Shown here: piece by piece, positions 48,056 to 48,452 of the stretch | How positions within the stretch are numbered: the first letter of the stretch is position 1 | Layout of the letters: each line of letters starts with the position of its first letter | Source of the DNA: Octopus vulgaris | Lineage: Eukaryota | Assembly (NCBI GenBank): GCA_951406725.2 | Contig: OX597816.1 | Location: forward strand, 153,078,001-153,142,000 | DNA: 64,000 nucleotides | Reading direction: 5' to 3' | The notes under the pieces: model-generated | Database searches by the model: none | Seen by the model: only the letters and a program-made list of their open reading frames with translations | What the model was told of the DNA's origin: nothing | Program-made: the position numbers and the translations under genes

Positions 48056-48452
48056 TAGATATGGCCGGTCTAGGGGTTTAACTGTGTTTCAAGTCCATAA
48101 AGCATTAGGTTTACGGCGTTTCTTCAAACCCTAAAACCCGTTGGCTTATGGTCTCTCTAGCAACAAAAGAATATTTCTCCCCGATCGCTAATTAACTGAC
48201 CGTGTTGGTGTGTGGATCCCAGGACGCCAGGAGGAATTTCCTGAAGTGCAAGTAGGGTCCGAAGATTTAATTGCACTTCTGGAGTTAGGGGTGTTCCCCG
48301 AGACGAGGGAGTCCTTTAATATCCTCGTCCGTTTGGCAATGCACAGTTTACAACACTTGGTCCCATTTATGTAGGGGCCTGAAGAAACGCTGTAAAGCTA
48401 AATGCTTTATGGACGTGAAACCCAGGGTGACCCCATAGACCGGACATATCTA
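48056..48452. other. About 390-bp structured element with imperfect ~78-bp inverted arms, each forming a type I hammerhead-ribozyme-like motif
   Basis: Plus arm: GGGGC-CUGAAGA-A-stem II-GAAAC-CCAGG-GUG-ACCCC (48374-48434). A homologous motif lies on the minus strand at about 48069-48133, and the spacer has internal hairpins. Confidence 0.65.

Follow-up and report, generated by a model that had tools for sequence, protein, structure and literature searches.

Viroid-like circles can carry ribozymes in both polarities. Opposite-strand hammerheads are also on record for Penelope-like elements (PLEs). Craig et al. 2021 (PMC8557442) describe PLE insertions whose 5' end bears a 5'-truncated copy in inverted orientation and which have a tail at just one of their ends, and the files accompanying that paper give Penelope-13_HM one and the same hammerhead on each strand. 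In Schistosoma, Cervera and de la Pena (PMC4209133) report PLEs with two minimal hammerheads, which lie on opposite strands and are separated by 100-700 bp. Animal retrozymes, in the portions of two reports that concern their origin (PMC7229834; 10.64898/2026.07.22.740005), measure 170-400 nt and come from PLE pLTRs.

Here we analyse a locus of Octopus vulgaris in a stretch of 64,000 nucleotides (the window; GCA_951406725.2, contig OX597816.1, positions 153,078,001 to 153,142,000 of the forward strand). The initial annotation read window positions 48056-48452 primarily as an ambisense element, about 390 nt long and either viroid-like or retrozyme-like, and secondarily as an inverted pair of Penelope pLTRs, probably inactive. 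It is the second of these readings that agrees with the family copies and with the inverted duplicate described below. Our conclusion, to which we assign a probability of about 0.95, is that the locus is a dead insertion of a Hydra-clade PLE, truncated at its 5' end and carrying there an inverted copy of its own hammerhead-bearing 3' tip. Both hammerhead motifs are real, and the element is not viroid-like.

All pieces of the plus-strand motif named in the initial annotation were found: GGGG at 48374-48377, the core CUGAAGA at 48379-48385, one extra A, helix II, GAAA at 48417-48420 and ACC-CAG-GGU. The minus-strand homologue was confirmed as well, with the core UUGAAGA at 48127-48121 and GAAA at 48090-48087, and so was the defect that had been noted in the core of each copy. 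The plus-strand hammerhead (48374-48434; fold z -4.1) has G at the cleavage position, position 17 (48429), a letter shared by 4 of the 53 family arms analysed below, 48 of which have A. Its helix I is in addition closed by a C-A mismatch (48378 versus 48430), overlooked until now, because the 5' strand of this helix comes from endonuclease sequence at the inversion join. The minus-strand copy (48074-48131), which the alignment of arms and its column counts identify as the damaged sense-strand type I pLTR hammerhead of the element, has U at C3 and mismatches in helices II and III; its fold scores z -1.4 and its predicted cut lies after 48079. Judged by established core requirements, both window hammerheads are likely inactive. 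A search of window positions 46500-50000 with the Rfam hammerhead models, which had been proposed as a check, matched no family at E-values up to 10.

The arms of the element, 48056-48126 and 48380-48452, are inverted repeats that are 85% alike over about 72 bases. The whole element folds strongly, with z about -11 on the plus and -9.4 on the minus strand, because these inverted arms pair. The spacer had been credited with structure of its own; folded alone, 48137-48374 reached z -0.48 (plus) and -1.02 (minus), no better than shuffles. The stems named there do exist in the window copy, and their 3' arms proved private to it. Thus GAAGTGCAA (sense orientation), which occurs in none of the 39 other copies, accompanies a 5-base insertion private to the window copy, at a frameshift; CCTCGTC (sense orientation), an arm of the other named stem, is likewise missing from all 39. 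The 9-bp hairpin previously marked at 48243-48279 has one such private arm (48271-48279, 0/39), which coincides with the frameshift, and another that is found exactly in 21 of the 39 copies.

What the initial annotation missed is that the spacer reads as decayed endonuclease coding sequence. On the minus strand, 48056-48382 constitutes a 5'-truncated sense copy of a Hydra-clade PLE 3' end, made up of the endonuclease C-terminus, the 3' UTR and the hammerhead. It aligns with copies on many contigs at 69-75% DNA identity over about 325 bases, rising to 80-84% in the coding part, and 48053-48380 is 68% identical to the long two-armed copy L077. The decayed GIY-YIG-type endonuclease C-terminus occupies 48195-48379 (minus) in two frames, 48379-48269 and 48266-48195, followed by a stop codon at 48194-48192. 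It has kept CxxC (CKLC, 48352-48341) and the N, while showing changes both at the conserved E and at the C in CxH. In tblastn the two frames matched the endonuclease of family copy L003 at 62% and 75%, respectively (E 1e-16), and the remnant matched P0001, the protein of an intact sibling family, at E 0.003. The L003 endonuclease piece in turn matched a profile of 110 full-length proteins with 99.6% probability; the window remnant scored weakly, at 4.8 bits, against a profile of 110 outside proteins, and its assignment therefore rests on the family copies. Between the stop codon and the hammerhead lies a 3' UTR (48135-48191, minus) that is shorter than in most family copies.

The remaining part of the element, 48374-48452 on the plus strand, is an inverted copy of the 3' tip and includes the second hammerhead. 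In the arm alignment the two window arms are 82% identical, the 11 within-locus pairs spanning 67-89%. The plus-strand hammerhead is an inverted duplicate of the minus-strand one: the element is a PLE tail joined to a mirror image of its ribozyme-bearing tip, and its two opposite-strand motifs are a single motif duplicated. Adjoining the inverted arm is a (TATC)n/(TGTC)n microsatellite (48446-48575, plus); in many copies of the family the arm is followed by simple repeats of this sort. At many family ends the sequence passes into (TA)n or another simple repeat; the other side of the window copy has none. No target-site duplication could be read in the flanks of the window copy, and the element contains neither a tandem unit nor a terminal direct repeat. 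Further along, at 48580-49235, stands a SINE-like repeat containing an internal tandem duplication of 172 bases, 99% identical; we take the repeat to resemble a common octopus SINE.

The inversion join itself falls at 48374-48385, where the coding sequence of the endonuclease has about 7 bases of microhomology (CAGRCCC, minus strand) to the 5' side of the hammerhead in reverse complement. An exact 25-letter pattern across the join had one match in the 2.8 Gb genome (227 contigs), against 18 for a pattern from the unbroken body. When a 91-base query was used, the window alone spanned the join among 44 matches from the best 40 of 343 candidates. The exact pattern would miss diverged sisters and the query search scored the best candidates, so the join is unique as far as tested. 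Three public runs from two studies have contigs that cross it with 0-2 differences, and one of these contigs extends from the left flank; the join is thus not an assembly artefact, even though one of the three runs may be the source of the assembly. Among the runs listed as containing the element none is annotated as RNA, from which nothing follows about its expression. One run, presumed to be RNA, yielded eight short pieces 90-95% like the element, none of them from the coding part of the spacer.

These observations bear directly on the viroid-like reading, namely that the locus is a copy, resident in the genome, of an ambisense circular RNA whose two polarities each have a hammerhead. Its length of about 400 nt, its rod-like fold and the motifs on both strands would all suit such an RNA. 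The spacer, in contrast, is an unstructured endonuclease remnant, the two motifs are duplicates with shared flanks and damaged cores, the join is single-copy as tested, and tandem units and terminal direct repeats are lacking. Moreover, there is one cut site per strand, about 25 bases from its 3' end, and hence a monomer for circularisation cannot be released. The coding remnant and the unique join largely refute this reading, which we regard as improbable in the extreme; with arm spacing that varies about 30-fold in the family (see below), the headline claim of the initial annotation is not supported. A non-LTR retrozyme was rejected too, there being no tandem same-strand units, ribozymes on opposite strands and a coding remnant inside.

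The inverted stub is best understood against the other members of its family. A DNA search of the same genome gave at least 92 matches from the best 40 of 873 candidates, and a search with the endonuclease gave at least 150 (all 150 scored, the best of 17,195 candidates). Oriented as the minus-strand hammerhead, the copies reach upstream to differing points, as 5'-truncated retroelements do, and they translate to YIG..FK.R...H..SF ... CKLC..E ... LN.R.E ... CLH. Every copy seen is decayed. Loci L031, L076, L077 and L078 present RT, then endonuclease, then the family hammerhead, and L076 has a direct pLTR-ORF-pLTR arrangement. Five copies (L003, L006, L013, L076 and L077) carry an N/S/T-rich low-complexity insertion of roughly 100-200 codons that splits the GIY-YIG motif.

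Inversion is not peculiar to the window, as it was present within 1.5 kb at 7 of 29 other loci from the own-genome DNA search. At L077, L078 and L085 a hammerhead, RT and an opposite-strand hammerhead follow one another as in the window layout, with 1.8-2.8 kb between the arms, and L077 contains both RT and endonuclease between its two arms. For a comparison of spacing we used 11 divergent arm pairs, leaving out L016, the convergent L038 pair and the L078 pair. The arms of the ten other pairs stand 64, 586, 617, 618, 668, 1048, 1048, 1450, 1834 and 2076 bases apart, those of the window 240, and there is thus no fixed unit. In nine of these ten the PLE tail is present on one arm only; in the window copy neither arm has it (the arms score 16 and 11, and shuffles up to 33). 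Two loci depart from the usual pattern. At L016:1826-1919 (G000:C1:151542439-151542532) helix II contains a fold-back, which makes a near-perfect palindrome of the hammerhead's 3' half, and at L038:1946-2196 two family hammerheads are convergent, the opposite of the usual divergent layout.

Could the window copy nevertheless belong to a non-autonomous PLE derivative, a miniature or retrozyme-like element amplified as a fixed 400-base unit by PLE enzymes? Its size fits that of animal retrozymes with their PLE pLTR ancestry. Yet neither the best-scored candidates nor the exact pattern, for which the control gave 18, contained a second copy of the join, the ribozymes lie on opposite strands rather than in tandem, and the other two-armed copies differ in length. 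As the test comprised the best candidates and an exact pattern, a few sister copies could escape both; we consider such a unit very unlikely. A fixed unit-length ambisense replicon was rejected on the single-copy join, as tested, and on the arm spacing just given.

Inverted arms at both ends and termini that contain TA would also suit a miniature DNA transposon (MITE) whose terminal inverted repeats measure 75 bases. Most copies, however, are one-armed, with the arm on the 3' side of a coding remnant that has lost its 5' end, the truncation falling at many different points; this arm is a hammerhead, the flanks show no target duplication that could be read, and the coding partner is an RT-endonuclease and no transposase. 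One-armed, 5'-truncated copies linked to RT refute this explanation, and we give it next to no credence. We return to a truncated PLE with an inverted tip, and to the ribozyme that its family carries.

Arms for the family hammerhead were gathered with a DNA profile HMM, and pairing was judged by direct pair counts. The 59 distinct matches were reduced to 53 by dropping two from the L016 fold-back and four with large indels (L014, L019, L023 and one of L028). The core is intact in 25 of the 53, and 46 retain C at C3; at position 7 the letter varies freely (A25, U18, C9). The initial annotation had asked whether other genomic copies have intact cores, and part of the arms do. The named structure has 83% of its cells paired. 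Double changes numbered 41, versus 18.8 +/- 6.6 in shuffles, and none of 500 shuffles came as high; they fall chiefly on G-C/A-U in helix I (19/17) and on C-G/U-A at the helix III tip (29/10). Pairs showing a double change were no more numerous than in shuffles (115/500), and column 6 also tracks the unpaired column 16 (p 4e-6). Since double changes track subfamilies, as unpaired columns do, they amount to about two events. By this alignment we judge the family hammerhead to be genuine.

Helix III of the family is palindromic, with 4 bp and a 1-base loop. PMC4209133 reports that hammerheads with a palindromic, 1-base-loop helix III cut no more than weakly, and do so as dimers. The innermost pair of helix III spans the 1-base loop and can hence form only between two ribozymes. 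The compensatory change at this pair fits selection for dimeric cleavage in Hydra PLEs, while representing a single evolutionary event. The role of the ribozyme in Hydra PLEs is still open according to the relevant part of PMC8557442.

The assignment to the Hydra clade draws on the longer copies and on a sibling family. L031 combines a YRDD RT motif, a CxCx5C linker (CSCKDYNKC) and the endonuclease with the same hammerhead as the window family; in L076 the linker between RT and endonuclease is CPCRDRNRC. The linker position lies upstream of the truncation point of the window copy. The L003 endonuclease has CKLC..E..LN.R.E..CLH, and CCHH is absent from it as compared by eye with the published alignment. 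A word-indexed search with a 117-aa piece against longer proteins had retained none of 29 candidates; a subsequent HMMER library search returned 2,847 relatives. With the L031 RT piece as query we reached a young sibling whose 717-aa ORF is intact and whose copies form tandem and head-to-head arrays. Its protein, P0001 (717 aa, intact), carries RWK, DKT, CxCx5C, CxxC and CxH, the key residues of which are conserved in 77-100% of 110 aligned proteins, and which match the Hydra-clade marks given in the corresponding sections of Craig et al. (PMC8557442).

The alignment-based structure predicted for P0001 (pLDDT 93.5) had telomerase as its first fold match (E 3e-9). The fold search thus showed the RT, and no GIY-YIG structure was among the matches listed; against the Pfam GIY-YIG family the protein scored E 0.014, below the cut-off. 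Pfam matched no family in the decayed family pieces, and neither P0001 nor profile A2, used as queries against PDB sequences, gave a real match. RWK and DKT were seen in no copy bearing the hammerhead of the window family, because those copies are 5'-truncated. Compared by eye with the published Hydra-1_Obim protein, the L031 RT is identical at 65 of 87 positions and the window endonuclease piece at 19 of 35. Taken at the level of sequence, these marks identify the window family as a C-terminal EN+ PLE of the Hydra clade. Its hammerhead differs from that of Hydra-1_oBim, making it a sister family. A literature search, whose scope did not extend to the Repbase and Dfam catalogues, did not find the window family itself.

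The genome contains at least three Hydra families side by side. L083 and L084 (G000:C13:29922500-29928500; C4:94806000-94812000) are decayed, with an N-terminal translation that by eye is near Hydra-1_Obim and with RWK and DKT present and partly decayed; the hammerhead of L084 resembles that listed for Hydra-1_oBim. The young family at L073-L075 (G000:C11:13691500-13706500; C4:46713500-46722500), for example at L074:3429-5579 and 5779-5850, has intact 717-aa ORFs in tandem and head-to-head arrays that are more than 99% identical, with a unit of about 2.59 kb. Its RT has YKDD, nearly all aligned relatives differing at the K. In the one copy inspected the pLTR hammerhead reads CCGAAGA, with C replacing U4, and 11 matches at L073-L075 fit a hammerhead pattern that allowed either letter at U4. 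Within the window itself, 59465-59542 (minus) is a second, older endonuclease-like remnant, weakly similar to P0001 (42% identity over 26 aa, E 0.064).

The window also holds retroelements of other kinds. On the minus strand, 34051-39849 and 40501-46297 are tandem copies of a LINE that has ORFs for endonuclease and RT; over 5.8 kb the two are 98.9% identical. They are presumably L1/Tx1-like, going by their motifs. This pair is a recent duplication or tandem insertion. On the plus strand, 57987-58460 encodes an open frame of 157 aa that we assume to be a remnant of another non-LTR retroelement.

The inverted 3' tip at the 5' end of the truncated PLE was likely made during integration. In the route we propose, the PLE endonuclease would have cut an AT-rich or simple-repeat target, and the RT would have copied the 3' end of the RNA from both sides of the break, or else switched template. 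One copy may have halted after about 330 bases and the other after about 75, and the two would then have been joined at the roughly 7 bases of microhomology and left to neutral decay. Such a route fits the behaviour of a Poseidon PLE in vitro, for which excerpts of PMC11167929 report that both strands are cleaved and extended. In the ancestral family, the hammerhead would have cut tandem element RNA as a dimer, by way of its palindromic helix III with the 1-base loop. One could go further and view inverted Penelope stubs as ready-made precursors of ambisense circles, with the window locus or an intact relative transcribed and circularised; this we hold to be highly improbable.

The layout of the locus is already known: it is a decayed copy of a type of PLE debris that is in print. 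As one such insertion, the locus matters little in itself. It serves as a warning for genome scans: PLE stubs of this inverted kind look like the ambisense ribozyme pairs of viroid-like RNAs, and are unmasked when the spacer is translated. With hammerhead viroids and viroid-like circles, as characterised in parts of PMC8781251 and PMC10162972, the window element shares its size, a rod-like predicted fold and one hammerhead per strand; in contrast to them, its rod is an inverted duplication, its middle is a coding remnant, and the unit is chromosomal and single-copy and was seen in neither circular nor multimeric form. The metazoan non-LTR retrozymes described in excerpts of PMC7229834 have in common with it the type I hammerhead, the size range and the PLE ancestry, whereas the window unit is not tandem, bears its ribozymes on opposite strands, encloses a coding remnant and is single-copy.

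Its closest relatives are found among the PLEs. Hydra-1_Obim, the nearest named family, shares the succession of an RT, a CxCx5C linker and a GIY-YIG-type endonuclease in which CxxC and CxH flank E and N; the hammerhead listed for it differs in sequence from that of the window family, which in turn has a long N/S/T-rich insertion between the GIY-YIG halves. With the Hydra clade as a whole, as set out in sections of PMC8557442, the family has in common a type I hammerhead at the 3' end, in which one extra base follows the core and helix III is a palindrome of 4 bp with a 1-base loop; many of its ends also run into (TA)n or other simple repeats. Finally, the window copy shares the inverted layout of inverted pLTR insertions such as Penelope-13_HM. 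Unlike these, it is very short, is joined inside helix I of the inverted hammerhead and carries the tail on neither arm.
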